Position numbers and translations under genes: made by a program. The notes under the pieces are model-generated. The model searched no databases. It had not been told where the DNA came from and worked only from the letters and a program-made list of their open reading frames with translations. Positions 6,338 to 23,779 of a stretch of DNA of 32,000 nt are shown piece by piece. The DNA lies in NCBI RefSeq assembly GCF_000015805.1, contig NC_009073.1, forward strand, positions 450,001-482,000, read 5' to 3'. Every line of letters begins with the position of its first letter. Positions within the stretch are counted from its first letter, which is position 1. The DNA comes from Pyrobaculum calidifontis JCM 11548. Its GTDB lineage: Archaea > Thermoproteota > Thermoprotei > Thermoproteales > Thermoproteaceae.

Positions 6338-7344
6338 CCTGGGACGCCACCCTAGCACTGCTCTGGTTCTTAGCCCCAGAGGCAGGCCGCGCCCTCTCCC
6401 CCCGCGACCCAGCCAAGGCAGTGGCCCTCGGCCTCGCCGCGCTGGCCGCCTCCCTAGCCTTCCCCCCAGCCGCCTTACTCATAATAGTCACAAAGAGGCA
6501 CAGGCCAGACCCGTGGTTCCTCGCCGCCCTCAAGCCCATCGCCGTCGCCGCCGCCCTCGGCCACCTACTACCCCACCCCGAGCCCCTCGCCTTCGCCAAA
6601 GGAGGAGTGTGGAGCCAGTACGCCCCCCTCACCTACTACATGTACAAACTGGCCTGGTGGGCAACCCCAGAGGCGGTGGCCCTCGGCGGCACAGCCGCCG
6701 CCGCGGCCATCCTCTACCAAGCCCTAGCCGCCTGGAGAGGGGCAAGGGACGCCGCCCTCCTCACCCTCATGTGGCCCACCCCCGCCTTCCAATACTTCTC
6801 ACACCACGCCTACACCTTCGCCGCCATATGGACCGCGTGGCTCATGTGGGAAAAAGGCCGCAGACGCGCCTGGCTAGGCTACACAGCGCTGGCAACGGCA
6901 TTCCACACCATAATGGGACCCCTAGCCGCCGCCCCCCTCCTCAAACGCAGAGCAATACAAGCGCTAGCCGCCCTCTGGGCCATATACTTCGCCATAAGGG
7001 GGGCCTGGCCCATCGGCGACGTCGTGGCAGGAGCCGCCGCGGCCCTAGCCGACCCAAGCCGCCTAGCCGCCGGCGCAATAGCTCTGCTCGACAGCTTGCC
7101 CACCCTAGCCGCCCTGCCCACATACCTCTACATCCTCGCCACAGCCCACAGAGGAGGCATCTACTACGCCGTAGCCCTGCTGGGAATTGCAATAGCCGCC
7201 CTAACCGCCGCCCACGTGCCGCCCAGCGTCGCCAGAGGCTACATCTCCAGGTTCATATTCCTCGCCCTACCCTTCGCCGGGACAGCCGCCTGGCCCCTAG
7301 GCCTAGCCGCGTATATATACCAGGCAAGCCTCACCGCGGTATGA
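6334..7344 (+). CDS. Polytopic membrane protein (Wzy/O-antigen-polymerase-like or GT-C candidate)
   Basis: 336 aa from GTG6334 (GTGA overlap with the upstream stop), hydrophobic throughout. The part of the 645-aa ORF upstream of 6334 is Arg/Pro-rich and overlaps the GT4-like gene, so it is not coding. Confidence 0.5.
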   Translation: MTWDATLALLWFLAPEAGRALSPRDPAKAVALGLAALAASLAFPPAALLIIVTKRHRPDPWFLAALKPIAVAAALGHLLPHPEPLAFAKGGVWSQYAPLTYYMYKLAWWATPEAVALGGTAAAAAILYQALAAWRGARDAALLTLMWPTPAFQYFSHHAYTFAAIWTAWLMWEKGRRRAWLGYTALATAFHTIMGPLAAAPLLKRRAIQALAALWAIYFAIRGAWPIGDVVAGAAAALADPSRLAAGAIALLDSLPTLAALPTYLYILATAHRGGIYYAVALLGIAIAALTAAHVPPSVARGYISRFIFLALPFAGTAAWPLGLAAYIYQASLTAV

Positions 7345-8657: not shown

Positions 8658-9760
8658 CCCTCGTAATACCCACCCTAGACGAGGCCGAGGCCATAGGCAA
8701 AGTGATAGAGGAGGCCAGGAGAGCGGGCTTCACAAAGATACTAGTGGTAGACGGAGGCTCCAGGGACGGCACCCCCCAAATCGCCGCAGAGAAGGGCGCA
8801 GTCGTAATAGGGCAGAGGGGGAGGGGAAAGGGAGACGCCATAGCCACAGCACTAGACTACGTGGACACCCCCTACCTCGTCGTAATAGACGGAGACTACA
8901 CCTACCCCCCAGAGGAGGCCGCCAAGCTAGTCGCATACCTACGGCACTACGACCTAGTCCTAGGCGCGAGGCAGGGCCCCATGCCCCTCATCTACCGCGT
9001 GGGAAACTGGCTACTGGCAAGGGCCATATCCCTAATGTACGGAGTGAGGCTGAGGGACCCCCTCACAGGCATGTACGCCGCCAGGACCGAGGTCCTCAGG
9101 CGAGCCGCCCCCACAGCCCAAGGCTTCGACATAGAGACAGAGATAATAGCCAAGGCAGTGGAACAGGGCGCGTCGGTGAGAGAGGTGCCCATCCAGTACA
9201 GGAAGAGGCTAGGCCGCAAAAAGCTAAAGCCATGGCACGGCCTTCACATCCTCTGGCGCGCAGTGAGAGCCGCCTACACCGCCAACCCACTCCTCGCCCT
9301 ATACCTCGCCGGAGCCCTCCTCGCCGCGCCAGGCCTCGCCCTAGGCGGATGGGTCGCCTACAGGCTATTCTACCAGGGAGTCCCCCACTACATGCTAGGC
9401 TTGTTAGCCCTCGGCCTACTCCTACTCGGGTTGGTCTCCCTCGCCCTAGCCCCCCTAGCCGCCGCCGTGGTGAGACTGAGGGCACAAATCGCCCGCGCCA
9501 CCCCCAGACAGGAGCCCACAGACTGCCTCCCACCACTCCCACCACCCCCACCACCCCAGCCCAGGAGGCGCCCAACCATCTGGGACAGACTAGAGGCAAC
9601 GGCCAGGGGGCTGACAATAGCCTTCGCCGCGACCCTCTCCGCCGCCGCGTACTTCCTAGCCGTGGGAGACACGCCGACCGCGAACAAGCTCGCCGAATAC
9701 GCCTACTACTTCCTCGCCGCCGCGACTGTGATATATCTGGCAGTAGCCGCCAAACAATGA
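8645..9760 (+). CDS. GT2 glycosyltransferase, dolichyl-phosphate hexose synthase-like (DPM1/AglD/AglJ type) with C-terminal membrane domain
   Basis: 371 aa. VTLVIPTLDEAEAIGKVIE, LVVDGGSRDGT, VVIDGDYTYP (DxD). C-terminal TM helices separated by a proline run PPLPPPPPPQPRRRP. 13-nt overlap with the flippase gene. Confidence 0.75.
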   Translation: MDCVTLVIPTLDEAEAIGKVIEEARRAGFTKILVVDGGSRDGTPQIAAEKGAVVIGQRGRGKGDAIATALDYVDTPYLVVIDGDYTYPPEEAAKLVAYLRHYDLVLGARQGPMPLIYRVGNWLLARAISLMYGVRLRDPLTGMYAARTEVLRRAAPTAQGFDIETEIIAKAVEQGASVREVPIQYRKRLGRKKLKPWHGLHILWRAVRAAYTANPLLALYLAGALLAAPGLALGGWVAYRLFYQGVPHYMLGLLALGLLLLGLVSLALAPLAAAVVRLRAQIARATPRQEPTDCLPPLPPPPPPQPRRRPTIWDRLEATARGLTIAFAATLSAAAYFLAVGDTPTANKLAEYAYYFLAAATVIYLAVAAKQ

Positions 9761-10272
9761 GCTGGAGGCTTACCGCCACCGTGGCCATAACCGCCACGCT
9801 GATCGCGCTGGTAGCCGCCCTGTTGCCCCCCACCGACTTGTTGACACAGCTACGCTCAGCCACCTACACCGCCCACTACCCCTGGGGCCTCGTCGCCGCA
9901 GACGGGAGCCACGCATACGCGGAGCTGGGCCCCTACAGGGTGGCCCTCAACCTGTGGAAAATCGTGATATGCGACGGCGGGTGCACCAGCCAGAACATAA
10001 ACGCCATCCAGCTATACGCCCAGCTCAAGGCACAGGGCCAACTCGTCATAGAAGACAGGGGAGGCGGGTGCTACCACGCACAGCTAAAACCCACCCAACT
10101 CGCCGGCAGAGTCGTAGCCGCCGACGTCACCTTCTGCCTACAAAGAGGCATCCCTACCCGGATAGACGGCACAGTCACAATAGACGGACACGAGATAAGG
10201 CTCGGCGGAGAGCCCCACATCGAGCCGACATTCCCAATGGACAAATACCTAGAAATCCACGAAAAAACTTAA
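9757..10272 (+). CDS. Hypothetical exported/membrane-anchored protein
   Basis: 171 aa from ATG9757 (ATGA overlap). N-terminal hydrophobic anchor TATVAITATLIALVAALL followed by a Cys-containing soluble domain (CDGGC). No recognised family. Confidence 0.55.
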   Translation: MSWRLTATVAITATLIALVAALLPPTDLLTQLRSATYTAHYPWGLVAADGSHAYAELGPYRVALNLWKIVICDGGCTSQNINAIQLYAQLKAQGQLVIEDRGGGCYHAQLKPTQLAGRVVAADVTFCLQRGIPTRIDGTVTIDGHEIRLGGEPHIEPTFPMDKYLEIHEKT

Positions 10273-10277
10273 AAAAT
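10268..10277 (+). promoter_or_regulatory. Putative internal TATA box (CTTAAAAAAT) for the downstream gene set
   Basis: A/T-rich element overlapping the stop of the preceding gene, centred about 24 nt upstream of ATG10296. It coincides with a drop in GC content of the locus. Confidence 0.35.
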
Positions 10278-10295
10278 CCCCGCGTTGTGGCGTGT

Positions 10296-10658
10296 ATGCC
10301 CTCGCCGCTGGTGTTGCACAGGTTGTTGGCTGTTAGGTCTTTGGCGCTGCGTAGGGGTGTTTGGTTTAGGGTTAGGCCGGCGGCGAGGGCGCTAATAGAC
10401 GCCGTAATCATACACCTCAGAAGGGGCGGCCGGGTGAAGTCGCCCGCCCTCATCGACGCCCTCAAGAGGGCCGTGGAAGAGGCCCTCTCCCTCGCCGCGC
10501 CGCTTCGCGTAAAGGCGAAGGCCCTGGGATACGCCATAGCCGCCAAGCTCGGCATCACAGTAGACGAAGAGAGAGCCATCGCCCTAGGAATACAATGGAT
10601 AAACACCCCAAAAAGGTATAGAGGAGAGATGCTGCTCACATGGACAGTGGCGCCGTAG
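10296..10658 (+). CDS. Hypothetical small basic helical protein
   Basis: 120 aa from ATG10296. The listed 234-aa ORF extends upstream in Arg-rich sequence that overlaps the previous gene. No recognised motif. Confidence 0.45.
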   Translation: MPSPLVLHRLLAVRSLALRRGVWFRVRPAARALIDAVIIHLRRGGRVKSPALIDALKRAVEEALSLAAPLRVKAKALGYAIAAKLGITVDEERAIALGIQWINTPKRYRGEMLLTWTVAP

Positions 10659-11605
10659 GCGGAATTGAGGTTAGCGTAGTTGTTCCCACCTATAACGAGG
10701 AGAAGAACATCGGGACTCTGCTAAGAGCCCTCGACGAGGCCCTACACGGAATACCCTACGAAGTGGTGATAGTGGACGACGCAAGCCAAGACAAGACCAT
10801 TGAAGTAGCTAATGCCACTCCTATCAGCGGGCACTTAGTTGTATATAGGAAGCCAAAAAGAACGGGAAAGCCGGAGTCCCTCGCCATAGGGCTAAAGGTG
10901 GCCAGAGGCAGATACATTTCCTTCCTAGACGCAGACCTGGAATACCCGCCCAAGGCCATAGCCCAAATGTACCATGAGGCGCTTGAAACGAATGCGGACA
11001 TCATCGCCGCGGCTAGGATAGACAAAAGGCCACTTCACAGAAGAGTAATATCGTGGGGGGCAAAACTCCTAGCAAAGCTAATGATACGAGAGCTGAGGAG
11101 GCTAAGAGACCCCACCACCGAGCTCATACTGGCCAAAAAAGAAGCTCTGGTTAAGGTGGGATTTGAAAAATACGCCAAGTACATAAAGCCCATAACAGCG
11201 GCCCTCCGCCACACAGCAAAACTCGGCTACAGAATAGCCGAAGTGCCAGTAGAGGTGACCCCCAGGCAACACGGCTCCAGTAGCTTCAAGACCAAATGGA
11301 TAACCGCCTACCTGAAAGAGCTAATGGACCTTACCGACTGGCTCATACCCAAATACATCGCAATCGCCCTCGTGGCAGCCCTCATAGCACACGTCTTAAA
11401 CCCAGCCATAGGCATAGCCTCCCTCGCCATGAGCCTAGCCATCCGCTACATCCCACTAAGACGCCTAATCAACCCCCTGGGCCTCATCACGGCCGAGGCC
11501 ACCTCCACAGCGCTAAAAATCGCCTCCGCCTCCCTCATCGGGCTACCTCTCGCTTGGCTAATAGCCTCAGCCCTCGAGGTGGCGCTAGTGATGTGGCTAA
11601 GATAG
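10640..11605 (+). CDS. GT2 glycosyltransferase, dolichyl-phosphate hexose synthase-like with C-terminal TM helices
   Basis: 321 aa. VSVVVPTYNEEKNIGTLL, VIVDDASQDKT, FLDADLEYPP. C-terminal hydrophobic tail. Confidence 0.8.
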   Translation: MDSGAVGGIEVSVVVPTYNEEKNIGTLLRALDEALHGIPYEVVIVDDASQDKTIEVANATPISGHLVVYRKPKRTGKPESLAIGLKVARGRYISFLDADLEYPPKAIAQMYHEALETNADIIAAARIDKRPLHRRVISWGAKLLAKLMIRELRRLRDPTTELILAKKEALVKVGFEKYAKYIKPITAALRHTAKLGYRIAEVPVEVTPRQHGSSSFKTKWITAYLKELMDLTDWLIPKYIAIALVAALIAHVLNPAIGIASLAMSLAIRYIPLRRLINPLGLITAEATSTALKIASASLIGLPLAWLIASALEVALVMWLR

Positions 11606-12423
11606 TGGGAAGATACGGGGGTAAGCCCACGCCCCCAGAGATAGCCTACATAGACGAAAAAGCCATAGCCACATACGAGCCATACGTGGTGCCCGTGATC
11701 TGGGCCCCAGAAGCCCCAACGCCGGAAGCCGCCGTGGTAACCATAGACGGGACGCGGGGCCTATTCGCCTTCAACAACTCGGGCTGTCCACGAAACCCAG
11801 CCGTAGTACAACACCTAAAAAAGAAGATAGAGAGAGTGAGGCGGCTGGGGTACTCCCTAGCAGTCCTCGACGAGCTCAACTACCCCACCCCACACGACGG
11901 CGAGCTCTTCTACAGTTGCTTCTGTCAATACTGCCTAACCCACAGCCCACGGCTAAAAATGCTCAAAAAAGGCGACCTCCAAGGACTCGCCGAGGTCCGG
12001 AAAGACCTCGTGAGGAGCGTGCTGAGAGAGGTGGCCCAATACGCCGAAGGCCTCGGGCTGAGGCTAGAGGCGGCAGTACACGCCCCTACAATAGCCCACC
12101 TAGCAGGCCAAGACTACCACACATTCCTCAGACACGTGGACAGACTACAGGTAATGCTATACCGCAAATGCCCAGGCCCAGCCTGCCTAAACCGAGAGCT
12201 GGCAATGCTCGCCCGCTTCGGCTACAACCCATATGGAATAGACCCAGACGCGGTGGAGAAGGCAGGCGTGCCAATCCGTGTGCTAAAGCAAGAGGCGCAG
12301 AAGGCCAGAGAGCTGGCCGGAGAGAGAGCCATCCCAATACTCTGGGCCGACGAGAAGCTCCCAGAAGCCATAAGGGCGGTAGAGGAGGTGGGATTCGAAG
12401 AAGTCATAATATTCACGCCATGA
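11605..12423 (+). CDS. Hypothetical protein, possible TIM-barrel glycoside-hydrolase-like (GHL/DUF4015-type) enzyme
   Basis: 272 aa from GTG11605 (overlaps the upstream TAG). The segment CPRNPAVVQHLKKKIERVRRLGYSLAVLDELNYP resembles the C-x-x-N-P...LD-x-x-x-x-P pattern of GHL families. Weak assignment. Confidence 0.35.
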   Translation: MGRYGGKPTPPEIAYIDEKAIATYEPYVVPVIWAPEAPTPEAAVVTIDGTRGLFAFNNSGCPRNPAVVQHLKKKIERVRRLGYSLAVLDELNYPTPHDGELFYSCFCQYCLTHSPRLKMLKKGDLQGLAEVRKDLVRSVLREVAQYAEGLGLRLEAAVHAPTIAHLAGQDYHTFLRHVDRLQVMLYRKCPGPACLNRELAMLARFGYNPYGIDPDAVEKAGVPIRVLKQEAQKARELAGERAIPILWADEKLPEAIRAVEEVGFEEVIIFTP

Positions 12424-13532
12424 GAATACTCTGGCTAAACTGGCGCGACATAAAACACCCACTAGCAGGAGGCGCAGAGGTGTACACACACGAAGTGGCA
12501 AAACGCCTCGCCGCACGCGGCCACGAAATCATCCTCGTCACCTCGAGGCCAAAAGGCCTCCCCCCAAGAGAGGAGATAGACGGCTACACAGTGATAAGGA
12601 GAGGAGGCAAGTACACCGTATACCTAGAAGCCCGCCGCCTCTATCACCAGCTAAAGAAGGAGGGCTGGCGCCCAGACGTGGTAATAGACGAAATAAACAC
12701 AGTGCCATTCCTAACCCCCAAATACGTCAAAGAGCCAATAGTAGCCCTGATACACCAGCTATGCAAAGACTGCTGGAAATACGCAGTACACCCACTCGCA
12801 CAGCCCCTAGGATGGTGGCTAGAACAACGCCTACACAAGCCATACATACAAGCGGCAAAGAGAGGCAACCTAAAGGTAATCACAGTCTCCCCCAGCACAG
12901 CCCAAGACCTATACGACCTAGGCTACCCACCCTACGCAGTAGCCATAGTCCCAAATGGGCTAGACTGGGAGCTATATAAAGACTGCAACAGCCAAAAGCG
13001 TGACTTAGTCACCTACGTGGGGAGAATAACCCCCTACAAAAGACTAGAAGACCTCCTAAAAGCTTGGAAAACTGTGGAAAAAAGCTACGACGCCGAGCTG
13101 ATCATTGCAGGCCGGGCCGACCCACGTTACCTAGCCAGACTCACAAAACTAGCCAAAAGACTAGACCTTAGCCGCGTCAACATAAAGGCTAACATTACCC
13201 AGCAAGAAAAAAAGGCACTACTAGCCGAGGCAAAGCTCCTCGTATACACATCCGTCCGCGAAGGCTGGGGACAAACAATCCTAGAAGCTGCGGCATGCAA
13301 GACACCATCAGTGGTATACAACGTACCTGGCCTAAGAGACGCCGTAAAGCACATGGAAACAGGTGTAATAGTAAAGCCAGGGAACATAGAAGAGCTAGCA
13401 AAGACAATAGTACTTGTAATGACAGAGGAAGAATTAGGGAAAAGGCTAGGAGAGATGGCCTATTTGTATGCACAGACATTTAGTTGGGATTTTACAGCAA
13501 AATTATTTTTAAAAGAAATTAATACAAGTTAA
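12420..13532 (+). CDS. GT-B fold glycosyltransferase (GT4 family)
   Basis: About 370 aa from ATG12420 (ATGA overlap). MRILWLNWRDIKHPLAGGAEVYTHEVAKRLAARGHEI and C-terminal EGWGQTILEAAACKTPSVVYNVPGLRDAV. The upstream part of the 538-aa ORF is Arg/Pro-rich read-through. The last ~100 nt are already AT-rich. Confidence 0.8.
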   Translation: MRILWLNWRDIKHPLAGGAEVYTHEVAKRLAARGHEIILVTSRPKGLPPREEIDGYTVIRRGGKYTVYLEARRLYHQLKKEGWRPDVVIDEINTVPFLTPKYVKEPIVALIHQLCKDCWKYAVHPLAQPLGWWLEQRLHKPYIQAAKRGNLKVITVSPSTAQDLYDLGYPPYAVAIVPNGLDWELYKDCNSQKRDLVTYVGRITPYKRLEDLLKAWKTVEKSYDAELIIAGRADPRYLARLTKLAKRLDLSRVNIKANITQQEKKALLAEAKLLVYTSVREGWGQTILEAAACKTPSVVYNVPGLRDAVKHMETGVIVKPGNIEELAKTIVLVMTEEELGKRLGEMAYLYAQTFSWDFTAKLFLKEINTS

Positions 13533-13535
13533 AAT

Positions 13536-14441
13536 ATGCAAAATAAAGAAGGGGTTACAATTGGAATACCGGTTTACAACGAAGAAAAAAATATACAAAG
13601 ACTTCTTAAAAGTTTGGCCATTCAAAAAAATGTTAATATAGATCAAACAATCATCGTTAATGATGGTTCTACAGATAATACAACAGCAAAAATACATGAA
13701 CTTAATACCTCAATAAAAAACAAACTTAATTTACATATAATTAACTTAGAAAAAAACATGGGAAAAGCAAATGCGCTAAACATAATTTTTAACAAAGCAA
13801 ATTCGGAAATATTGATTATCCTAGATGCAGATGTAATTCTTATAAAAAGCAATACATTAGAAGAATTGTTACGATGCTTTCAAATGGACAAAAACATAGG
13901 ATTAGTAAGCGGATGGTACATAATGGAGCCGCTTAAATCAACAAATATAATTGCAAGAGCGTATAGATTTTCAAACATATTACTCGAAAATCTAAGCAAA
14001 AAGAAACCATTGTATAGTGCCACTGGTGCTATTATGGCTTTACATAAAAGCATTTATAAAAAACTATCACTGCCACACAATGTTGTGAGGGATGATGCAT
14101 ATATTTATCTCTATACAGTAAAAAATGGAAAAAAGTATGTGTTTTGTCCAAACGCAAGAGTAATTATACCTATATATGAAAAAATGACAACTAAAACATT
14201 TTTATATAGACAACTTCGTGCTACTCGAATTCCAAAAGTTTTTGTAAAAGAATTTGGACAAATTGCAATTGATGAACTTAAAATAAATCCTTCAATAGCA
14301 ATTAAATCGTTTATAAAATCTTATATTAAACAACCATTTGATGGTACAATATACCTCATACTAAAAGTTGTATCAAGTATTTATAAAAGACTTTCAACAA
14401 ACACAAGCGTTAGAATTCATTGGAAAAATTATGAAAAATAA
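13536..14441 (+). CDS. GT2 glycosyltransferase (AT-rich, horizontally acquired)
   Basis: 301 aa. GIPVYNEEKNIQRLL, IIVNDGSTDNT, ILDADVIL (DxD), VRDDAYIYLY, YRQLRATR. Confidence 0.8.
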   Translation: MQNKEGVTIGIPVYNEEKNIQRLLKSLAIQKNVNIDQTIIVNDGSTDNTTAKIHELNTSIKNKLNLHIINLEKNMGKANALNIIFNKANSEILIILDADVILIKSNTLEELLRCFQMDKNIGLVSGWYIMEPLKSTNIIARAYRFSNILLENLSKKKPLYSATGAIMALHKSIYKKLSLPHNVVRDDAYIYLYTVKNGKKYVFCPNARVIIPIYEKMTTKTFLYRQLRATRIPKVFVKEFGQIAIDELKINPSIAIKSFIKSYIKQPFDGTIYLILKVVSSIYKRLSTNTSVRIHWKNYEK

Positions 14442-16566
14442 TTTGATCATATTATTGCTATACATCTTTATAAGTTTAATACCTCTTGTACTCATTTACT
14501 ATGATAATGATTTTAGAATTGTGATTTTCCACGATTCACCGTATCCGTTAAATTCAAAGGAACTCGCCTACCTATTCTTTTATATTTGGCGCGATAATTT
14601 TAATTTCGGTATAGCTGATGTTACAGGTATACCATTATCATTATTTTATCTTTTTATTTATATACTTGAAACAATAACTGTTGATAAAGCTCTAGCGCAG
14701 ATTCTACTTTTATTTATATTAAATTTATTAGCATTATACTCGATCTATTTGTTAGCGAAAGATATTGGTTTAAATAATTCACTAGCCTTAGTGGCATCGC
14801 TTCTATATTCGTTCAACCCTTACTCGCTTTATTACTGTTGGAGGATTTTTAATACTAATATATTTCTATATTCAGTTTTTCCACTTTATATTTTATCCAT
14901 AAACAAAATATACCGAGATAAAAAATACAAATATGTAGTACTGATATTGATCTCTACTGTAATTGCATATCCTTCGTTTACTAATCCAGCCTTTTTCTTG
15001 TCTCTATTTGTTGCATTATTAATTTATTTGCTAACATTATCGGTACTTATAAAGAAGAGCCTTATCGAAACATTTGCTACTTTTATTATAATAATTTTTC
15101 CCATTTTTACTCTAACATTTCCTGTTTATACTAATCTATATTTTGCAGTTAAAGAAAATAATATATTTACAAAAGATGTAATTCACAGCTTAGTAAAAAT
15201 ATATGAATTTAATACTCATAATGTAACTTTACTCAACCTCTTCACTTTAACTGCTATGCCACCTGTCTATGAAAATATTGAATGGTATCCTTTCCAAGAT
15301 TTATATAAAACTAATAATTTCACTATCGCTTTGGGACTTTTTATAGTTTTTATGTTAACCTTATCTTCAATTATTCAAAAAAATCGACTAATTTATGATC
15401 TACTTCCCTATATTTCACTCTTCTTATTTGCTTCATTTTTTACATTTAATAATGAATTTGGACATTACATATTTAGTAACTTAATTAATTTATTAGCACC
15501 ATGGCGTGATCCATATCATAAGCTTGGTTTTATCATTGCTTTAAGCTTAAGTCTCATTTTCTCTAAATCACTTCAGCTTCTAATAAAACTGTTTGCTAAA
15601 AATAACTATATAAGGTTATTTATTTATTTATTAGTTATGCCAATTTTACTATTTTATTTATTTCCATTTTTTACTTTAAATTTCATTCCAGAAAGTTTAA
15701 CTTACGAAAACACCATTATTACTCCTTTTACACAGGTAATCTACGACTATTCTCGTGTTATAGAAATATTGAAAAATGATAATTCTTTCAATCATTCAAT
15801 TGACAGAATTTTAGTCTATCCTTTTACTAATACACTTTGGTGTGAAAATGGCTATTTAGGAAGTGATATTTTACGTTTATATGGTTTCAATACTATTTCT
15901 ACGCTCTCTCACACAAATAGTTTAGAATCAATAAAATTTTTAGAAAATATATTAGAAAATGTAACAGTTATAAGGCAAAGTAATTTTGTTGATATAATCA
16001 GTAGATTAGGTGTAAAGTATATTCTTATCAGAAAGCAAACTTGTCAACGCTATTTAGTTGACCGCGCAATAGTAATCAAGACCATTCTTGAAAATAAGAG
16101 TAATATAATAAAAGTTCTAGAAACTGAACGTTTTGCTTTATTTAAGATAAAAAATGCAACAGTAAGCAGATTTGCTATACTAACTACCACTACCACAGAG
16201 GATTCTAATCTTGATATCTTGAATGTCTTGTTGACCAGCAGAGCTGTAGTTGCCTCAAAGGTTGATCCTTCTACCTGGGAGCTTAATGTCTCTTCTGACA
16301 CGCCCTTTTATCTTATATTTGCAAACAGTTATGACCAATATTGGGAAGCATATATATACAAAAACGGGACATTAGTTAGGACAATTAAGCCAATATCTTT
16401 TTATGGCATCTTTAATGCCTTCTGGATAAATGAAACTGGTAATCTATACATAGTAGTTAAATATAAACTGCAAGAATTTTTTATACTATTTTTGTTGATT
16501 TCATTTATTTTTCTCTCAATATTCATCTTCTTTATCTTTCACATAAAAGGCGATCCTCTTCAATAA
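14431..16566 (+). CDS. Large polytopic membrane protein, GT-C-type glycosyltransferase/polymerase candidate (AftD/DUF3367-like N-terminal pattern)
   Basis: 711 aa from ATG14431 (11-nt overlap with the upstream GT2; ORF opens at 14368). More than 12 hydrophobic segments. The first loop HDSPYPLNSKELAYLFFYIWRDNFNFG resembles the acidic/Pro...W...G loop of GT-C enzymes. A ~250-aa soluble C-terminal domain is followed by a terminal TM. Confidence 0.55.
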   Translation: MKNNLIILLLYIFISLIPLVLIYYDNDFRIVIFHDSPYPLNSKELAYLFFYIWRDNFNFGIADVTGIPLSLFYLFIYILETITVDKALAQILLLFILNLLALYSIYLLAKDIGLNNSLALVASLLYSFNPYSLYYCWRIFNTNIFLYSVFPLYILSINKIYRDKKYKYVVLILISTVIAYPSFTNPAFFLSLFVALLIYLLTLSVLIKKSLIETFATFIIIIFPIFTLTFPVYTNLYFAVKENNIFTKDVIHSLVKIYEFNTHNVTLLNLFTLTAMPPVYENIEWYPFQDLYKTNNFTIALGLFIVFMLTLSSIIQKNRLIYDLLPYISLFLFASFFTFNNEFGHYIFSNLINLLAPWRDPYHKLGFIIALSLSLIFSKSLQLLIKLFAKNNYIRLFIYLLVMPILLFYLFPFFTLNFIPESLTYENTIITPFTQVIYDYSRVIEILKNDNSFNHSIDRILVYPFTNTLWCENGYLGSDILRLYGFNTISTLSHTNSLESIKFLENILENVTVIRQSNFVDIISRLGVKYILIRKQTCQRYLVDRAIVIKTILENKSNIIKVLETERFALFKIKNATVSRFAILTTTTTEDSNLDILNVLLTSRAVVASKVDPSTWELNVSSDTPFYLIFANSYDQYWEAYIYKNGTLVRTIKPISFYGIFNAFWINETGNLYIVVKYKLQEFFILFLLISFIFLSIFIFFIFHIKGDPLQ

Positions 16567-16621
16567 AATACATAAAAATGATTAATTATATAGGCCATAC
16601 ACCGCGCTGAGAATGTAAATC

Positions 16622-16808
16622 GTGAAAATTTTAAGTTTTGGGGCTCGCGTTTAAGCCTGGCACAGACGACGTGAGAGAGTCACGCGGCGTGGAGGTGGCC
16701 AAGCTCTTGGCTGAGGAGGGAGCGGAGGTCTACGTCCACGACCCCGTGGCGTTGGAAAAGGCGAAGGCCGTGCTAGGAGACAAGGTGGCCTATGTGGAAG
16801 ACGCGTAG
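16622..16808 (+). pseudogene. ugd: 3'-terminal remnant of UDP-glucose/GDP-mannose 6-dehydrogenase
   Basis: Translation gives VKILSFG (frame a), then after a GGGG run [55 protein letters not shown]-stop (frame b). [14 protein letters not shown] is the hallmark of the UDPG_MGDP_dh C-terminal domain. About 60 of roughly 430 expected codons remain. High GC, unlike the flanks. Confidence 0.8.
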
Positions 16809-17100
16809 AGACTCGCGAAACCAAGATCTACGAAGGAGTAACATGACAGTGGTGGGCTGGGTTGTGAGATACTTATTATAGGAGCCGTCTCGAAAAGGTT
16901 TTCTAGATTATAACCTTGCATCGCAAAAATGTATATATGCATTGGAAATTCAACGAGGTCGTGAAGCCCGTCTTGGCGAACGGCATAGCCAGCGGCTATT
17001 GGATAGATGACGCCGAATTACGGCACATCTTCCAAAGACCTTATGATGTGGTGGTAAAAATCTCTGCCATGGCTCTAGCCGCAACCATGCCATATTTATC

Positions 17101-17976
17101 ATGGGCCTTACGAAGGGAAATATGACAGAGCCATTAGTATCAATAATAATACCTACACGCAACTCAGAGAAGACACTGCCCCTATGTTTAAGATCTATTG
17201 AAAAACAGACATATAAAAATATTGAAGTAATTGTAGTAGACAATTACAGCAAAGACAAGACTGTAGAAATTGCGAAATCCTATGGTGCGAGAGTGTACTT
17301 CAAGGGCCCTGAACGGTCTGCGCAAAAAAACTTTGGTGCACTCAAGGCCCAGGGAGACTACGTCTACTTCATAGACGCAGACTTCGTCCTCCACGCCCGC
17401 GTAGTAGAGGAAGCGGTCTCCTTAGCTAAGGAGGGATACGACGCAGTAGTAATTTTGAACATAAGCGATCCTCGCCCTAGTCTTGTGGCAAAGATTAGGT
17501 TTTATGAAAGATTGAGTTATTACGGCAGTGAAATGTATGAAGCAGCGAGGTTTATTAAGAAAGATCTTTTTTTAAAAGTTGGCGGTTTTGATATAAGGCT
17601 TTACGCAAATGAAGATTATGAACTCCATCAAAGACTTCTAAGGGCTGGTGCAAAGATTGCCAAAACAAAAAATAGTTTTGAAATACATATAGGTGAACCG
17701 TCAAGTATAAAAGAATTCATAATTAAGAATTTGTATTATGCATCAAATATTAGTACATACTTTAGGAAAAATCCAAATATTCGCCATATGACACCTTTAA
17801 GGCCCACTTTCTTTAGGAAGAGCTTTATAGGACACCTTGGGAGGAAATGGTTGCCAGGCCTATTTTTAGTGATTCTATTCAAAGTTTTACAAGCCACTGT
17901 AATAGGGTTAGGTATTTTAATAAAGTCCAACGTTTTACCATATGAGAATATACAAAAACTTAGAAGAGTAATTTAA
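17101..17976 (+). CDS. GT2 glycosyltransferase (compositionally chimeric)
   Basis: 291 aa. VSIIIPTRNSEKTL, VVDNYSKDKT, FIDADFVL (DxD), ANEDYELHQRLLRAG. Alternative start ATG17122 lies about 27 nt after the A/T box ATATTTAT (17092-17099). Confidence 0.8.
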   Translation: MGLTKGNMTEPLVSIIIPTRNSEKTLPLCLRSIEKQTYKNIEVIVVDNYSKDKTVEIAKSYGARVYFKGPERSAQKNFGALKAQGDYVYFIDADFVLHARVVEEAVSLAKEGYDAVVILNISDPRPSLVAKIRFYERLSYYGSEMYEAARFIKKDLFLKVGGFDIRLYANEDYELHQRLLRAGAKIAKTKNSFEIHIGEPSSIKEFIIKNLYYASNISTYFRKNPNIRHMTPLRPTFFRKSFIGHLGRKWLPGLFLVILFKVLQATVIGLGILIKSNVLPYENIQKLRRVI

Positions 17977-17998
17977 GGTTAACTCTATATAAACTAGA

Positions 17999-18019
17999 AA
18001 TGTTTTTAAATAAAACATT
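17999..18019 (+). terminator. Possible terminator hairpin with T-run after the GT2 gene
   Basis: AATGTTTT (17999-18006) and AAAACATT (18012-18019) form a perfect 8-bp inverted repeat with a 5-nt loop, 23 nt after the stop codon. It contains a T5 run. It is a weak A/T-only stem in AT-rich DNA. Confidence 0.25.
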
Positions 18020-18107
18020 AAATAGTGATGAATAGCGAAACTGTAGTTTACAAGGCAGATGTGTATATCTTAATTGTTCACCATAAACTTTCTTAGAAGG
18101 ATAGGCG

Positions 18108-18403
18108 CATATAGCATATAGAGACGTGAGGACTGAGGTGAGAAGGGTCGTAGAGAGGTGCCGTTTTTTGAGGTGTATGTGAGAGTGCCTTTCGACGTGG
18201 CGATTAGGCGGGATCCCAAGGGGCTTTACGCAAGGGCTCTGCGGGGTGAGTTGAGGGGGTTCACGGGGGTTGACGACCCGTACGAGGAGCCTCTCTCGCC
18301 GGATTTGGTGCTCGACAACGCGGAGCCCCCTCCTGAGAGGAATGCGGAGGTGCTCGCCGGCTTTGTCTTGGAGAGGGTTGAGTATGGAGTCTCACGGGGG
18401 TAG
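18108..18403 (+). pseudogene. cysC: 5'-truncated, frameshifted adenylylsulfate (APS) kinase
   Basis: Translation gives [17 protein letters not shown] in one frame and [59 protein letters not shown] in another. This matches the C-terminal half of CysC (E. coli: [43 protein letters not shown]). The P-loop half is absent. Similarity starts exactly at the AT-to-GC boundary. Confidence 0.8.
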
Positions 18404-18873
18404 GCTGGTCTACAGAGTGGTGGAGGGGTTGGACGAGGCCGCGGCGCTGGCGGATGGGCTTCCTAGGCTGGAGCTGGGGCCTGCCCTGGGCCCGGGGGGA
18501 TTCCCATTAGGAGTCCCTATAGGGAGGTGATGTCTATCGGGTTTAGCCCGGTGGAGGGCTTTATGACGTGAGGCGAGGTTGGGTCTGTGGTTGGGGAGCG
18601 GAGGCTTTTGAGCGGGCGGCTTTTTCCCATCCCGTTGATCTTTGACGTGGGGGAGGCCTTTTGCAGTGTTGGAGGTTTATAGGCTTCCCGGCGGGACTGG
18701 CGCTCCTGGGCGTAATGGGGAGGTGGTTGGGTGCCGGTTTGGCGAGGGGCGCTTGGGCCGGCTTGTGTGTAGGCTTTACTCTGAGTTTGTTCACCTCGTG
18801 CAGGTTAACGCAAAGGGGGTTTGAAGTTAAAGGAGGCGCGCTAAGGCTGGAATTAGCGCACGGCTCTGCTTAA
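18384..18873 (+). pseudogene. sat: Degraded sulfate adenylyltransferase (ATP sulfurylase), N-terminal part only
   Basis: [31 protein letters not shown], then a frame change near a G6 run (18494-18499), then YREVMSIGFSPVEGFMT, an in-frame TGA (18569-18571), GEVGSVVGERRLLSGRLFPIPLIFDVGEA and TAG (18680-18682). Further pieces (GLALLGVM..., FVHLVQV) lie in other frames. The order matches the Sat N-terminal domain (PHGGxLVxRVV...GxFSPLxGFM...PIxL). The catalytic QTRNPxHRxH / GRDHAG region is missing. Confidence 0.7.
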
Positions 18874-18974
18874 AGCGATTGTGGTGGGAAATACCTGTCC
18901 CAATGTTTGTGAAATTGCGGCCCGGCGGAGAAAAGTTTTTCTAAACATATAAGTAGTTCACATGGGGAGGGGGT

Positions 18975-19028
18975 GGGTCAGCGTGCCTGGTTTCGGGCAG
19001 GGACCCCTCCCAAGTCGTTCATCATCCC
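18975..19028 (-). ncRNA. Candidate C/D box sRNA
   Basis: Minus strand reads GGG-AUGAUGA-(37 nt)-CUGA-CCC: a canonical C box, a canonical D box, a 3-bp terminal stem, 54 nt total. Internal D'/C' boxes are poor (GGGU / UGCCCGA), which lowers confidence. Confidence 0.3.
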
Positions 19029-19644
19029 CTCCCCCAATGAGTTTCCCCCTAGAGCGCGTGGACGCACGTTTTGTAGCTAGCTTCTTTCTCTTCACGGAAA
19101 ATTTGGCCAACTCCTCGGAGCGCAGATACATGCCTCTGCGTGGCAACGACGGTTTAAAACGAGACGTAGAGAGTGTGAAAGTGAGGGGGAGTTCGCTGAA
19201 ACTACGTCTCCCTCAGTCTTAACTGCCGCCAGCGGCCAGGCGGCGGGCTCCAGCTGTAGCGTGCTGTGTCAATTTTATCAATTATTTTGTACTGCCTTTG
19301 AAGTCAGCTTCTGTACTGCAGATGGGCCGTAAATGCGGCTATGTCATGGGTGGGCGGGCGTTGTGGGTGTGGTGGATCGTGGTGATGTACCGCGTCGGCG
19401 TAGTAGTGGAGGGCTGACGCCGGCTAGGGGGCGTGGTGGTCGTTAACGTGAACGGCGGCTCGCGGTGGGGGTGGAGATGTCCGTGGAAGAGGGTGCTGGG
19501 GGCAGTATGCGGTATCAAAGAAAGGTTTGTGGCGAGTGAGATTGGCGAGAGGTCGCGCACATGAGCCGTTGCCCTGGGGGTCGTCCGGGCGTGTGGCGTG
19601 GACTGGGGAGGGGCCTCTCTAGGCCTGTGGGGGCGGCGTGCGGT

Positions 19645-20016
19645 TTAGCTCTCCTGTCTTTTCTGTGTGAGGGCGGTTATTAGGAGTCGATAGAGTTCGT
19701 CGAATTTGCGGTTTATCTCGGCGTAGAGGGCGTCGATCTTTGCGTTCATTTCCTTACGCAGTTCCTCGATTTTGGCGTCAAACTTGGCGTCTGTGGCGTC
19801 GAATCTGGCGTACATTTCTCTCCTTAACTGCGCTATCTCCTCTCTTAGCGCTTTTTCTCTTTCGGTTGCCTCGGCGCGCATTGCCCTCACGTCCTCTGAT
19901 ATTGAGCCTAGGTAGAGTATGAGGATGTCCTCTGTGGTAAGCTTCTTGCCCCGCTTTATCTTCTCCATCACGTGTTTCACGGCGGTCTCGATGGCGATAG
20001 AGGCGGCGGCGTCCAT
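19645..20016 (-). CDS. Coiled-coil protein of unknown function
   Basis: 123 aa. The C-terminal two thirds are charged heptad-like sequence (REEIAQLRREMYARFDATDAKFDAKIEELRKEMNAKIDALYAEINRKFDEL). ATG lies 24 nt from a TATA element. Confidence 0.65.
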   Translation of the reverse strand: MDAAASIAIETAVKHVMEKIKRGKKLTTEDILILYLGSISEDVRAMRAEATEREKALREEIAQLRREMYARFDATDAKFDAKIEELRKEMNAKIDALYAEINRKFDELYRLLITALTQKRQES

Positions 20017-20035
20017 AGATGAGAGATGTTGTGTG

Positions 20036-20043
20036 TTTAAATA
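20036..20043. promoter_or_regulatory. Near-palindromic TATA element TTTAAATA between divergent start codons
   Basis: Centred 24 nt from ATG20016 (minus-strand gene) and 27 nt from ATG20067 (27-codon plus-strand ORF). Confidence 0.4.
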
Positions 20044-20696
20044 TGTGGCTTTTTATGTTCGTTAGGATGGGCGCCGAGATTAATGTGGCTGTTTTCAAGG
20101 CGCTGGCTATGCCTAACGGCGGTGTCTTAGCGAGGTACGAAGTGGTGTAGTGACTGAGGTTACTGGTGGTGGGCAATACGGGGGCGGAGGAGTGTGGACA
20201 ACGGAGTGCTAGAGCTTGACGTCTCTCAGGTTGTTGGGCGAGGGGTGCTACGTCGTTGAGAGAAGTCGCCTGTGAATGTGCTAATTAGCGTGGGTGAGTT
20301 GGCTTTATGGCACTACGGGGGGTGAATCTGTTGGCCGTGTAGCTCTTTGTGGCGGCTGTTGGTTGCTCGTCTGACAAGCCTCCTGCTTGTGAGGTCCCTT
20401 GTTGGTGGTTGTAGGGGGCGCGCTTGTTTTCGTAATTTCTTTCCGCGACTGTCCGGCCCCCTTTTGGCCGTTGGCGCAAATTCTTTAGAGGGCTGTGGTG
20501 CATTGGGTATGCTCGCTTGTGGTCTCGCAGTCGCCTTAGGCGGGGGCCGCTGTCTAGGGTCGCTGGAGTTGTGTGCCCTCTCGCACGGTGGTGGTTAGAG
20601 TTGAGGCGCGTCTGTGGCGCTGGCGGACTGGTCTAGCGTGGTCCTACGTCTCTCTCAGGGCCTTGTTTACTTCGGCCTATTACGTCGGCGGTAAAC

Positions 20697-20704
20697 TTTT
20701 AAAT
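20697..20704 (+). promoter_or_regulatory. Putative TATA box (TTTTAAAT) of the tRNA gene
   Basis: Centred about 24 nt upstream of tRNA position 1 (20725). Confidence 0.5.
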
Positions 20705-20724
20705 CGCCGCATTCGTTAACACTA

Positions 20725-20837
20725 GGGCCCGTAGCTTAGCCCGGCAGAGCGCCCTGGGGCCGTGCCCCGCGTAGGGCTCATAACCGGGAAGTCCCGGGAG
20801 GGTGTCCCCGGGAATTCAAATCCCGGCGGGCCCACCA
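20725..20837 (+). tRNA. tRNA with CAU anticodon (elongator Met, or Ile2 if C34 is modified) carrying two introns; 3' CCA encoded
   Basis: Removing 20755-20774 (20 nt, between positions 29/30) and 20799-20814 (16 nt, between 53/54) gives a canonical cloverleaf. Acceptor GGGCCCG/CGGGCCC, U8, D stem GCUU/GAGC, A14, G18G19, anticodon stem CCCGG/CCGGG, loop CUCAUAA (CAT at 20779-20781), variable AAGUC, T arm CCGGG-UUCAAAU-CCCGG, A73, CCA. G1:C72 argues against an initiator. Intron ends can slide by a few nt because of local repeats. Confidence 0.8.
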
Positions 20838-20970
20838 GCCTCTTCGCCTCAACGCGCGCAATAATTCTCTTATCTTCCGCTGGGTTTCCGCCGTTTAGGC
20901 CGGCGGTGGCTTGGCCGGTGAGAGGCTTGACTGCTGTTGAGCTTAAATGGGCTTGATCATCGTACAAGCT

Positions 20971-20978
20971 ATTTAAAA
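20971..20978 (+). promoter_or_regulatory. Putative TATA box (ATTTAAAA) for the PaREP1 gene
   Basis: Lies 23 nt upstream of the second in-frame ATG (20998), suggesting the leaderless start is 20998 rather than 20980. Confidence 0.4.
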
Positions 20979-20979
20979 C

Positions 20980-21537
20980 ATGGTTCAACAAAGAGCCATG
21001 GAACAGGTGATTGAAAGGCCGCTCCCGAAGCCCACGTCCGCCGATTACGCCTCTGCGCGTCTTCTTGAGGCCCTTGTCAAAGCCAAGCTCGCCCTCGACT
21101 TCCTCGAGCGTGGTCTTACTCGCAACGCGGCTGGGAAGGCTTTTCAAGCGTGGAGGACTGTGCTGGCGGCTCTTCTCAAGCTGGAGCTTGAGCGGCTGAA
21201 GGCCTTGGCCAAGACGGAGGAAGAGCGGCGCTGGCTTGAGGAAAGGGCGGTGCCCCGAGTCCCCACTACGAAGATGATACCGCTTTCGCAGATGTTGAGA
21301 GTGCTGGGGTATCGGGATGTTGCATTTATAACTGACCGCGCTTTAAACCTCCACGACTATCAGTACCACGGACCAGATCCAGACATGGCATTGAGCAAGT
21401 ACAGGACGAGGGAGGAGGCGGCGAGGGCGGTTGTGGAGCTTGTGTCGGCTGTGGTTGACTATGTGGAAAGGCTGAGGGATAAGTGCGCTGGATGCGAAGA
21501 GCTCCTTGGGGATCTGAGAGAGGAGGTGGCTAGGTAG
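20980..21537 (+). CDS. PaREP1-family protein (four-helix, HEPN-like)
   Basis: 185-aa ORF (179 aa from ATG20998). The N-terminal segment ADYASARLLEALVKAKLALDFLERGLTRNAAGKAFQAWRTVLAALL matches the PaREP1/PaREP8 family pattern known from Pyrobaculum. Contains RALNLH (Rx4H). Confidence 0.7.
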   Translation: MVQQRAMEQVIERPLPKPTSADYASARLLEALVKAKLALDFLERGLTRNAAGKAFQAWRTVLAALLKLELERLKALAKTEEERRWLEERAVPRVPTTKMIPLSQMLRVLGYRDVAFITDRALNLHDYQYHGPDPDMALSKYRTREEAARAVVELVSAVVDYVERLRDKCAGCEELLGDLREEVAR

Positions 21538-21559
21538 CGCGACTGGGGTGTCGCGTTTT
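21538..21559 (+). terminator. Stem-loop plus T-run directly after the PaREP1 stop
   Basis: CGCGAC (21538-21543) and GTCGCG (21550-21555) form a 6-bp G/C-rich stem with a 6-nt loop, followed by TTTT (21556-21559). Confidence 0.4.
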
Positions 21560-21692
21560 GCCAGCGCCGTTTGTGTCGCGTTGTTTGGCGAAGCTGGGCT
21601 TGGCGTTTCGCTAGGCGTAGCTTTGGGGAGGGGGCGCGTCGGCCGCGCGTCTGCGTAGGGACCGCAGGCCGGGTCTGTGGGGGCCTCGTGTG

Positions 21693-22475
21693 TCAGTACT
21701 CTCTTCCGACTATTAGGTATATCTCTAGCTCTTTTGCTCTTTTTTGTAGGTGTTGTACCACTTCTGTGGGGGCGTTTTCTACGGCTAGGACTTTTAGGTA
21801 GGTCTTCTTGCCTGTGAATTTTTCTGCGGCTTCTGCGGCGGATAGGAGTTTTTCCACTTCTCGCTCAGCCTCCTCCACGGTCTTCAGCGAGGTTGTGGCT
21901 TCTCCCACGACGAGGGGATCTGGGCAGAAGATGTCTACTTCTCTGTAGCCGTCTACTGGGAGGGTGACGTTGACTCTTATGCCGCATATAATGCCCCTCT
22001 CGGCGAGTAGGGCCTTGACTACGTTGGCTGTGTAGTACTCAAAGGCTCCGCCGAGGGAGTCCCTTATCTCGCCTAGCGCGGCCATTATCCATTTAAACTT
22101 CTTGTCCGCCTCCTCCCAGCGCCTGAAGTTTTCCTGCCACTTTCTCTCGTTCTCCTCCCACCGCTTCTCGTTTTCTTCCCACCTTTTCTCGTTTTCGCGC
22201 CACCTCCTCTCGTTCTCTTCCCATCTTTTTGCCTGTTCTTTTATGAGGGTGTTGAAGTCTTCTCTTAGTTTTCTTAGTTCTTCGAGTATTTCTCTGAGGC
22301 CGAGTAGGCCTGCCACAGCGAGTCTGAACTCTTCGTCTTCTTCTAGTAGTTTAAGTAGCTGGCGTTTGAGGGCTGGCTCCACGTGGCTTGTGAGGTGGCT
22401 GTTTATAAGCGTTAGGTGTTTAGTAGCCACTTCCAGAGGGGGACGTACGTTACTACTCCCCTCTTCCTGTACCAC
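21693..22475 (-). CDS. Coiled-coil protein with Trp-heptad repeats and a C-terminal PD-(D/E)XK-like domain
   Basis: 260-aa ORF. Central KRWEENERRWRENEKRWEENEKRWEENERKWQENFRRWEEAD. C-terminal FEYY...REVDIFCPDPLVVGEATTSLK fits a D...(E)x(K/T) restriction-endonuclease-like core. An alternative GTG start at 22430 would reduce the overlap with the upstream ATPase gene. Confidence 0.6.
   Translation of the reverse strand: MVQEEGSSNVRPPLEVATKHLTLINSHLTSHVEPALKRQLLKLLEEDEEFRLAVAGLLGLREILEELRKLREDFNTLIKEQAKRWEENERRWRENEKRWEENEKRWEENERKWQENFRRWEEADKKFKWIMAALGEIRDSLGGAFEYYTANVVKALLAERGIICGIRVNVTLPVDGYREVDIFCPDPLVVGEATTSLKTVEEAEREVEKLLSAAEAAEKFTGKKTYLKVLAVENAPTEVVQHLQKRAKELEIYLIVGREY
22110..22229 (-). 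repeat. Tandem 21-nt (7-codon) repeat, about 5.7 units
   Basis: Trp codons (CCA on the plus strand) at 22116, 22137, 22158, 22179, 22200 and 22221 are spaced exactly 21 nt apart. Unit consensus is CTCGTTYTCYTCCCAYCKYTT. Confidence 0.85.
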
Positions 22476-23704: not shown

Positions 23705-23779
23705 ATTTATGAATTTTTGGTGCTCTATGATGCACTTTTGATTGTGGGAACTGCCGCGCGGAAGAGCTTTTATTTGGGT

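Follow-up and report, generated by a model that had tools for sequence, protein, structure and literature searches.

A probably exchangeable, AT-rich core of the surface-glycan island of Pyrobaculum calidifontis with apparently persistent low GC content

The glycan genes of the hyperthermophile Pyrobaculum calidifontis JCM 11548 include ~4.7 kb of AT-rich DNA in an otherwise GC-rich setting, raising the question of how such a tract was acquired and for how long it has differed from its surroundings. The tract lies in a 32,000-nucleotide (nt) stretch of contig NC_009073.1 (positions 450,001–482,000; hereafter the window, with positions counted from its first base) and involves the genes Pcal_0483–0486, identified by exact protein matches. 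It belongs to a glycan island extending from 1894 to ~18100, along the whole length of which a Pfam scan of the open reading frames (ORFs) detected genes for glycosyltransferases of families 2 and 4 (GT2 and GT4) and flippase-like proteins. An original prediction, made from the sequence alone, held that 13380–18107 consisted of recent, un-ameliorated imports from a low-GC donor that had replaced part of the locus, analogous to the exchange of O-antigen or capsule cassettes in bacteria. The comparisons presented here suggest that the tract is probably the exchangeable core of the island and that its low GC content is persistent, not the sign of a recent arrival.

The compositional step itself was readily reproduced. 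Counts of G+C in 60-nt blocks agreed with those first reported (13501–13560, 11/60; 14461–14520, 13/60; 16681–16740, 41/60), with a difference of a single base at 13321–13380 (29/60 compared to 28/60). In 300-nt windows, the mean GC content was 0.32 inside 13380–18107 compared to 0.586 outside (sd, 0.064; minimum, 0.39; n = 267), with 80% of the inside windows under the lowest outside value. The gap amounts to ~30 points between the AT-rich pair Pcal_0484 and Pcal_0485 (27.6%) and the window background (58.6%), and to 37 points relative to the upstream glycan genes (65% GC). Composition was foreign at all three codon positions, and GC content at third codon positions (GC3) was 0.185 in Pcal_0484 and 0.229 in Pcal_0485 compared to 0.62–0.80 in neighboring genes, so amino acid content alone is insufficient to explain the drop. 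As predicted, GC content starts to fall while still within the GT4 gene Pcal_0483, whose last ~60 codons, at the 3′ end, slide to AT-rich (GC3 of 0.57, 0.40, and 0.33 in 30-codon blocks, then 0.0 for the last 11 codons). The right edge, first placed at 18107, was refined to ~18114 by alignment to a relative. By GC content, GC3, and gene content, the tract is compositionally foreign and within a surface-glycan locus, as had been claimed.

Two AT-rich pieces make up the tract, the first (piece A; 13533–16634, 27.6% GC) carrying a putative membrane-associated GT2 (Pcal_0484) and an AftD-like glycosyltransferase of the GT-C type (Pcal_0485) as an overlapping pair, and the second (piece B; 17122–18113) a further GT2 (Pcal_0486) with an AT-rich tail. 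Between them, in the GC ‘rebound’ and beyond it, lie a decaying remnant of a UDP-glucose dehydrogenase (UGDH) gene and a conserved spacer (Table 1).

Comparison of related loci shows that other AT-rich gene sets, predicted to act in glycan assembly, occupy the same anchors in related genomes. A hot-spring metagenome contig (L033) shares the sequence of 16637–17358 with the window at 77–92% nt identity (92% for the UGDH remnant; 77% for the 5′ part of Pcal_0486), and between its GT4 gene and the UGDH remnant it carries a different AT-rich pair, consisting of a gene for a 731-amino-acid (aa) polytopic protein, of which only the C-terminal ~130 residues are similar to Pcal_0485 (34% identity), and a GT1-like gene. 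L033 thus has the shared flank and non-homologous center of a replaceable cassette, with the left flank sampled in part only, and the proposed analogy with O-antigen cassettes holds in this respect. In a second contig (L032), the 3′ end of the UGDH gene is followed on its right by another AT-rich gene and then by GC-rich DNA. Two metagenome-assembled genomes (MAGs) labelled Desulfurococcales (L011) and Pyrodictiaceae (L012) each possess a ~6-kb tract of 20–35% GC near the GT4 orthologue, which the AT-rich DNA abuts directly in L011 and follows ~1.8 kb downstream in L012. These tracts encode other GT2s, GT4/GT1s, 606- and 892-aa proteins lacking Pfam matches, an FkbM methyltransferase, and a phosphodiesterase; neither contains an orthologue of Pcal_0484 or Pcal_0485. 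Every alternative center (the window, L033, L032, L011, and L012) encodes predicted glycan-assembly functions, with the 377-aa gene of L032 outside the domain scan. A more distant Pyrobaculum sp. (L035) has the same neighborhood, including a gene like that for the mannosyltransferase PcManGT, a homologue of 9954–10658, and an intact adenylylsulfate kinase gene (cysC), with no AT-rich DNA in it.

Truncated native genes mark the junctions, consistent with the proposed cassette-type replacement. The UGDH remnant, the common right-hand anchor of the variable cassette, retains 56 codons of the UDP-binding domain (92% and 96% nt identity to L033 and L032, respectively) and is longer in both relatives (131 aa in L033; at least 109 aa in L032). 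The L033 remnant holds a complete C-terminal domain and is 5′-truncated as well; relative to it, the window shows a stop codon at 16806 (CAG>TAG) and lacks 106 nt after 16813. The spacer that follows contains a 69-aa ORF (16916–17125, +), also open in L033 with in-frame indels only and without a Pfam match, which could represent either a short gene or the constrained remains of one. The GC content of Pcal_0486 forms a mosaic (48–56% at 17300–17500; 25–42% elsewhere). Its first 86 codons share 84% aa identity with the L033 orthologue (L033 4620–4877) at a GC3 of 0.395 compared to 0.581, so its composition differs between close lineages, while over its full length it is 41–48% identical to GT2s of L028 and L031. 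At the right junction, the cysC remnant shares 87% nt identity with the 3′ part of an intact 185-aa gene in L034 (177 aa in L035), having lost ~89–104 codons at its 5′ end and a further 4 nt. The adjoining sulfate adenylyltransferase gene (sat) is frameshifted by the loss of 1 nt near 18484, lacks another 9 nt, and carries TGG>TGA near 18573, with no frame beyond ~18650. As homology starts inside cysC and sat is broken, native GC-rich genes appear to have been clipped where AT-rich DNA abuts. Judging from these lesions, the sulfate-activation genes cysC and sat are dead in JCM 11548; GenBank annotates the 81-aa cysC remnant as an adenylyl-sulfate kinase.

The persistence of the low GC content could be explored through two contigs, L036 and L027, that derive from one metagenome, overlap at 95.5% identity, and together form one block. 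This block is colinear with 13044–16548 of the window (75–78% nt identity), covering the 3′ end of the GT4 gene, the GT2 gene, and the GT-C gene (78%, 67%, and 66% aa identity, respectively; the GT4 value is for the last 160 residues, in L036). The same GC fall occurs in the GT4 tail, and the downstream DNA is 56–74% GC. Synonymous divergence (dS) from the window was 0.86–1.03, with a ratio of nonsynonymous to synonymous divergence (dN/dS) of about 0.2, yet GC3 is low on both sides (window compared to block: 0.186 and 0.236 for Pcal_0484; 0.229 and 0.246 for Pcal_0485) and is 0.42 in both for the adjoining part of the GT4 gene. By a rough estimate, about half of the GC3 gap would be expected to have closed after such divergence. 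L036 is the nearest partner of the GT4 gene and of the cassette alike. With GC3 low in both lineages, the most economical interpretation is a GC step that predates their split and has not eroded since. The description of the tract as a recent, un-ameliorated import was therefore not sustained, given a colinear block with the same GC step at a dS of ~0.9–1.0 and a GC3 of 0.19–0.25. Orthologous AT-rich genes at the same position in all relatives, which the original prediction would have read as an ancient, selectively maintained composition, were found in one relative (L036/L027) and not in L035, which lacks AT-rich DNA there.

More distant homologues bear on where the cassette ultimately came from. 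Homologous glycan genes fall below host GC in Thermococcus barophilus (30–36% compared to 40–46%) and in L031, and contigs of uniformly 33–40% GC (L038, L039, and L043, one of them 71 kb) carry the same gene set at 30–49% aa identity, comprising a GT4, a Pcal_0486-like GT2, a Pcal_0484-like GT2 (in L038), and an AftD-like GT-C. An ultimately low-GC origin is therefore plausible, and to that extent the original prediction stands; no donor lineage could be named, as the closest labelled homologues are 44–46% identical (T. barophilus and a Thermoproteales MAG), and the suggestion of a viral donor found no viral relatives in its favor. Ca. Nitrosocosmicus agrestis (L015) likewise encodes a homologue of the GT4 (38%), and the module may be widespread in low-GC archaea.

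In the preferred scenario, the cassettes would come from a low-GC pool of glycan gene sets that hyperthermophilic Thermoproteota with GC-rich genomes exchange by recombination; the pool would have deeper roots in low-GC archaea, and entry or replacement events would have clipped the native neighbors UGDH, cysC, and sat. Several points weigh against it. The 3′ part of the L033 GT4 is only 53% aa identical to that of the window; because the L033 contig begins inside this divergent GT4 gene, the exchanged unit may include the GT4 gene or more. A left breakpoint at ~13410, suggested by a 78% nt match of L033 to 13260–13410, was rejected, as the match corresponds to a conserved GT4 motif within a divergent allele. 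Most comparison loci are short metagenome contigs without a taxonomic label, the GC-rich host of L027/L036 is deduced from a few hundred flanking bases, and dS values close to 1 can be estimated only roughly from sequence with so strong a bias. In strict terms, it could also be that two cassettes, diverged beforehand, were each imported recently and independently at this GT4 junction. With respect to function, Pcal_0485 on its own had no Pfam or NCBIfam match even at E ≤ 10, and the substrates of the cassette enzymes are predicted ones.

These results can be set beside other explanations of the tract. A recent origin by one or two horizontal acquisitions, still un-ameliorated and taken straight from a low-GC source (Sulfolobales-like, DPANN, methanogen, or virus), would accord with the foreign composition at every codon position, with the lack of AT-rich DNA in the otherwise similar L035 neighborhood, and with the distant gene sets of the uniformly low-GC contigs L038, L039, and L043. 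It is nonetheless unlikely, since the closest relatives (66–78% aa identity) share the GC step and the GT4 junction within a different GC-rich context and show no rise in GC3 at a dS of ~0.9–1.0, and since the common partner of GT4 and cassette fits a block that was moved or inherited with the GC step in place. Further, among 5.8 billion proteins no match above 67% identity was found in a uniformly low-GC contig, and no viral relatives were recovered from IMG/VR (GT-C family) or from 50,697 phage records (GT2). These viral searches also bear on the possibility that the tract was left behind by a virus, plasmid, or other mobile element that had integrated with glycosyltransferases aboard, which would recall the phage-borne serotype-converting GT2/GT-C modules (gtr) of bacteria and would suit the gene-poor 18.4–24 kb to the right, where PaREP1 and ATPase genes typical of variable regions occur. 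The absence of an integrase, transposase, or flanking repeat, already remarked on in the original prediction, was confirmed: no integrase or transposase domain occurred in the scanned ORFs, tRNA and Rfam scans of the window returned nothing, and a repeat search of 13000–18600 gave short low-complexity AT matches only, without flanking direct or inverted (att-like) repeats. With no integrase, direct repeats, tRNA target, or viral or plasmid homologues found, and with the genes of every tract variant encoding glycan enzymes (the 377-aa gene of L032 lying outside the scan), a mobile-element remnant appears very improbable, and exchange would rather have proceeded by recombination.

Strictly native, vertically inherited genes, made AT-rich only by the amino acids of membrane proteins or by selection on expression and without any lateral exchange, would be compatible with the richness of Pcal_0485 in Ile, Leu, Phe, Tyr, Asn, and Lys, with purifying selection, and with the compact, operon-like gene run. 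Such an account does not extend to a GC3 of 0.19–0.23, to the non-membrane GT2 Pcal_0484 that is equally AT-rich, or to the GC-rich polytopic proteins encoded in the same island (4068–5384 and 6513–8657, 65–68% GC). The nearest GT4 relatives, moreover, belong to a different archaeal order (64–67% aa identity of Pcal_0483 to the L011 and L012 GT4s), and the absence of the cassette from L035 and its replacement in L033 largely refute this account, leaving it with very little probability. An assembly chimera or contamination of the reference genome, to which the abrupt change in composition might point, is already refuted: ten independently assembled public contigs from several sequencing projects match the window across both junctions at 99.99–100%, genes at the left junction overlap or follow one another directly (the GT4 gene stops at 13532 and the next ATG is at 13536), and homologous junctions exist in L036 and L033. 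There is therefore no assembly artifact at the junctions. The ten contigs presumably represent the same strain sequenced in mock communities, and would thus be uninformative on natural populations.

Table 1. Features and segment composition of the glycan island and its AT-rich tract (window coordinates)
Feature	Position	Strand	GC	Evidence
PcManGT, GT2 mannosyltransferase	1894–2991	+	64% (GC3 0.80)	Full-length match to PDB 6YV7/6YV8/6YV9, 797 bits
GT2 with two C-terminal transmembrane segments, candidate dolichol-phosphate sugar synthase	10640–11605	+	54%	PF00535, E = 2e-27
276-aa protein	11593–12423	+		Overlaps genes on both sides; no Pfam/NCBIfam match
Pcal_0483, GT4 glycosyltransferase, boundary gene	12420–13532	+		Pfam Glycos_transf_1 and Glyco_transf_4; exact match ABO07914
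Segment, AT-rich pair	13533–16566		27.6%	
Pcal_0484, AT-rich GT2 (GT-A fold)	13536–14441	+	27.7%	PF00535, E = 2e-25; exact match ABO07915
Pcal_0485, AT-rich polytopic 711-aa protein, AftD-like GT-C family	14431–16566	+		Family profile to AftD
UDP-glucose/GDP-mannose dehydrogenase pseudogene remnant (GC ‘rebound’)	16635–16813 (179 nt)	+	61.5%	PF03720 positions 3–57 of 103, E = 8e-16
Conserved spacer with 69-aa ORF (16916–17125)	16814–17121	+	46% (45.8%)	77% nt identity to L033 4320–4620
Pcal_0486, GT2	17122–17976	+	37.2%	PF00535, E = 1e-28; exact match ABO07917
End of AT-rich tract, non-coding	17977–18113	.	29%	Composition; L034 homology begins only at ~18114
Segment, AT-rich tail	17977–18116		29.3%	
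cysC pseudogene, 5′-truncated adenylylsulfate kinase, right junction	18114–18403	+		PF01583 positions 101–152 of 152
sat remnant, sulfate adenylyltransferase	18384–18650	+		Aligns to sat 5′ end in L034

Both genes of the AT-rich pair have the attributes of functional genes. The dN/dS was 0.22 for Pcal_0484 (compared to the L036 orthologue) and 0.19 for Pcal_0485 (compared to L027), and a 711-codon open frame at the composition of Pcal_0485 has a chance probability of 6e-24; on this evidence, both are real genes under purifying selection. The start of Pcal_0485 overlaps the stop of Pcal_0484 by 11 nt, an overlap of ~11 nt being kept in the window, L027/L036, and L029, which suggests coupled translation. 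Membership in the GT2 family was clear for Pcal_0484 and Pcal_0486 (90 and 100 bits to PF00535; cutoff, 23.3). The AlphaFold2 model of Pcal_0484 (pLDDT, 91.5) has a GT-A fold with PcManGT (E = 5e-14) and hyaluronan synthase as its best Foldseek matches, and prediction of transmembrane segments in this protein gave none. A role for Pcal_0484 as a dolichol-phosphate sugar synthase was rejected, as GtrB, DPMS, and ArnC match the common N-terminal GT-A core only and Foldseek places GtrB 29th (TM 0.42), after PcManGT and hyaluronan synthase.

For Pcal_0485, only three close homologues were found among the 5.8 billion proteins, though an exhaustive profile search returned about 4,500 relatives. A profile of 38 homologues (A2, with Pcal_0485 as first sequence) matched the GT-C membrane domain of AftD (6W98/6WBX, E = 1e-23, profile positions 39–576), and 14 of the 38 matched PF11847 (GT-C_AftD; best E = 3e-19), so that the original ‘GT-C-like’ label is upheld at the family level. 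Membership in the AftD family is supported solely through this profile and the homologues, and not through a Pfam match of the protein itself. A profile of four sequences had found nothing in the PDB, AftD being reached by the 38-sequence profile only, and an AlphaFold2 model from the same 4-sequence alignment (pLDDT, 56) was too poor for a fold search. Hydropathy and the secondary structure of that model (membrane domain pLDDT, 56) suggest about 11 N-terminal helices and a C-terminal anchor, with a soluble α/β plus β-sandwich domain at residues 440–680. Among the 38 homologues, W53 never varies and D35, part of an FHDSPYP motif, is kept in at least 90%.

The pair is embedded in a run of tightly packed genes (10640–16566) that opens with a further GT2, successive genes overlapping by 13 and 4 nt, then separated by 3 nt, then overlapping by 11 nt; the AT-rich genes are therefore inside an operon-like run with genes of normal GC content. 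The opening GT2 (10640–11605) has near-full-length but sub-cutoff matches to the ArnC, AglJ, Dol-P-hexose transferase, and PpgS models, and predicted transmembrane segments at residues 231–266 and 290–320, making it a better candidate than Pcal_0484 for making the lipid-linked sugar that the GT-C would need. A homologue of the 276-aa protein that follows it (29% identity) sits upstream of the GT4 gene in L014. PcManGT, a crystallized mannosyltransferase, is the first gene of the glycan island and marks its left part, and the AT-rich cassette therefore shares an island with a published N-glycan enzyme; the title of the paper on PcManGT names N-glycan biosynthesis. The N-glycan of P. calidifontis is the most eukaryote-like (high-mannose type) reported among archaea (PMC11407970), branched and mannose-rich (PMC11407970, PMC8993221). 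Cytoplasmic GT4 and GT2 enzymes may extend a dolichol-linked glycan, the GT2 at 10640–11605 may make a dolichol-phosphate sugar, and Pcal_0485 may use this donor to add residues at the outer face of the membrane, with the cassette setting the strain-specific outer structure of the N-glycan or of another surface glycan. Such a mechanism would fit the branched, mannose-rich glycan. A literature search with the locus tags Pcal_0482–0486 gave no papers.

Replaceable glycan islands of low GC content have precedents in both bacteria and haloarchaea. The serotype loci for O-antigen and capsule in bacteria have been termed ‘replacement flexible genomic islands’ (López-Pérez et al. 2014, as cited in PMC4535781), and the P. 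calidifontis locus resembles them in its conserved anchors, in a non-homologous center of glycan enzymes and polytopic membrane proteins with a GC content below that of the genome, and in the lack of mobility genes, exchange being attributed to recombination in the flanks. It differs in its hyperthermophilic crenarchaeal host, in a GC gap of ~30 points, in anchors that consist of a GT4 gene and pseudogene remnants instead of housekeeping genes such as galF and gnd, and in a cassette with an AftD-like GT-C in place of a Wzx/Wzy pair. Among archaea, an alternative N-glycosylation cluster of Haloferax is variable and, at 52% G+C, well below the genome value (PMC5867893), and GI1 of Haloquadratum walsbyi is a cell-wall genomic island (PMC4535781). 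As in P. calidifontis, surface-glycan genes vary between close strains in both, where they have been read as serotype-like diversity that is possibly virus-driven (PMC5867893; PMC4535781). The present locus belongs to another phylum, encodes other enzymes, has a GC gap about twice as large, and adds low GC3 persisting across a dS of about 1; unlike in the haloarchaea, its variable genes are known from sequence alone.

At the level of the enzymes, Pcal_0485 is predicted to resemble mycobacterial AftD (6W98, 6WBX; PF11847) in having a polytopic domain at the N terminus and, after it, a soluble one outside the cytoplasm, but is half its size (711 compared to about 1,400 aa), is without the carbohydrate-binding modules and acyl-carrier partner, and would presumably use a dolichol-phosphate sugar as donor instead of decaprenyl-phospho-arabinose. 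The arrangement of a GT2 with C-terminal transmembrane helices (10640–11605) in the same gene run as a GT-C, with the GT-C partner as the variable component, recalls the GtrB/GtrA/GtrC and CsbB/YfhO systems, where a GT-C transferase is paired with a synthase of polyprenyl-phosphate sugar, and one homologue of Pcal_0485 matched Pfam YfhO (E = 5e-6). Unlike Gtr systems, no GtrA-family match was present in any scanned ORF, the module is not phage-borne, and the GT-C-coupled Pcal_0484 is nearer to GT2s of the PcManGT/hyaluronan-synthase type than to GtrB.

What sets the tract apart is the size of its GC gap, a hyperthermophilic crenarchaeal host with a eukaryote-like N-glycan, and the apparent stability of its low GC content; together with the known cases, it suggests that serotype-like surface diversity extends to hyperthermophiles. 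An AftD-like GT-C in a swappable module is a candidate for outer-face, lipid-sugar-dependent elaboration of glycans in Crenarchaeota. A GC3 of ~0.2 held across a dS of ~1 in GC-rich hosts lends itself to testing models of amelioration in nature, and warns against taking low GC by itself as a sign of recent transfer. A further idea, which we put forward only tentatively and regard as somewhat doubtful, is that a long-lived pool of AT-rich glycan cassettes (GC3 about 0.2) is shared across hyperthermophile orders (Thermoproteales and Desulfurococcales/Pyrodictiaceae), with the AT-richness actively maintained in genomes of 55–60% GC. If true, the cassettes would amount to a stable ‘second compartment’, defined by composition, in the genomes of organisms that grow above 90 °C. 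Its cause might be selection (for example, on how strongly the genes are expressed or on the isolation of alleles from recombination with each other) or constant re-circulation under virus-driven, frequency-dependent selection.

Several minor features of the region were also observed. Of the metagenome contigs matching the window (L001–L010, relative to 9544–20409), several that are 100% identical stop within the AT-rich tract or at its border (14466, 14535, 14582, 15094, 16649, 16836, and 17009); such an abrupt change in composition seems to interrupt short-read assembly. An AAA_15/AAA_21 (AbiEii/OLD-like) ATPase gene and a gene for a 243-aa partner occupy the left edge of the island (123–1882, +) and may be a defense-type pair travelling with glycan islands; a related ATPase gene adjoins the GT4 locus in the Pyrodictiaceae MAG (L012, 7787–9226). 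To the right of the sat remnant, 18650–24200 is gene-poor and variable-looking, with a DUF7121-like gene, PaREP1 (20980–21537), an AAA_14/DUF4143 ATPase gene (22412–23704), and a nucleotidyltransferase gene, and a second, milder GC dip (41–47%) occurs at 22800–23700.

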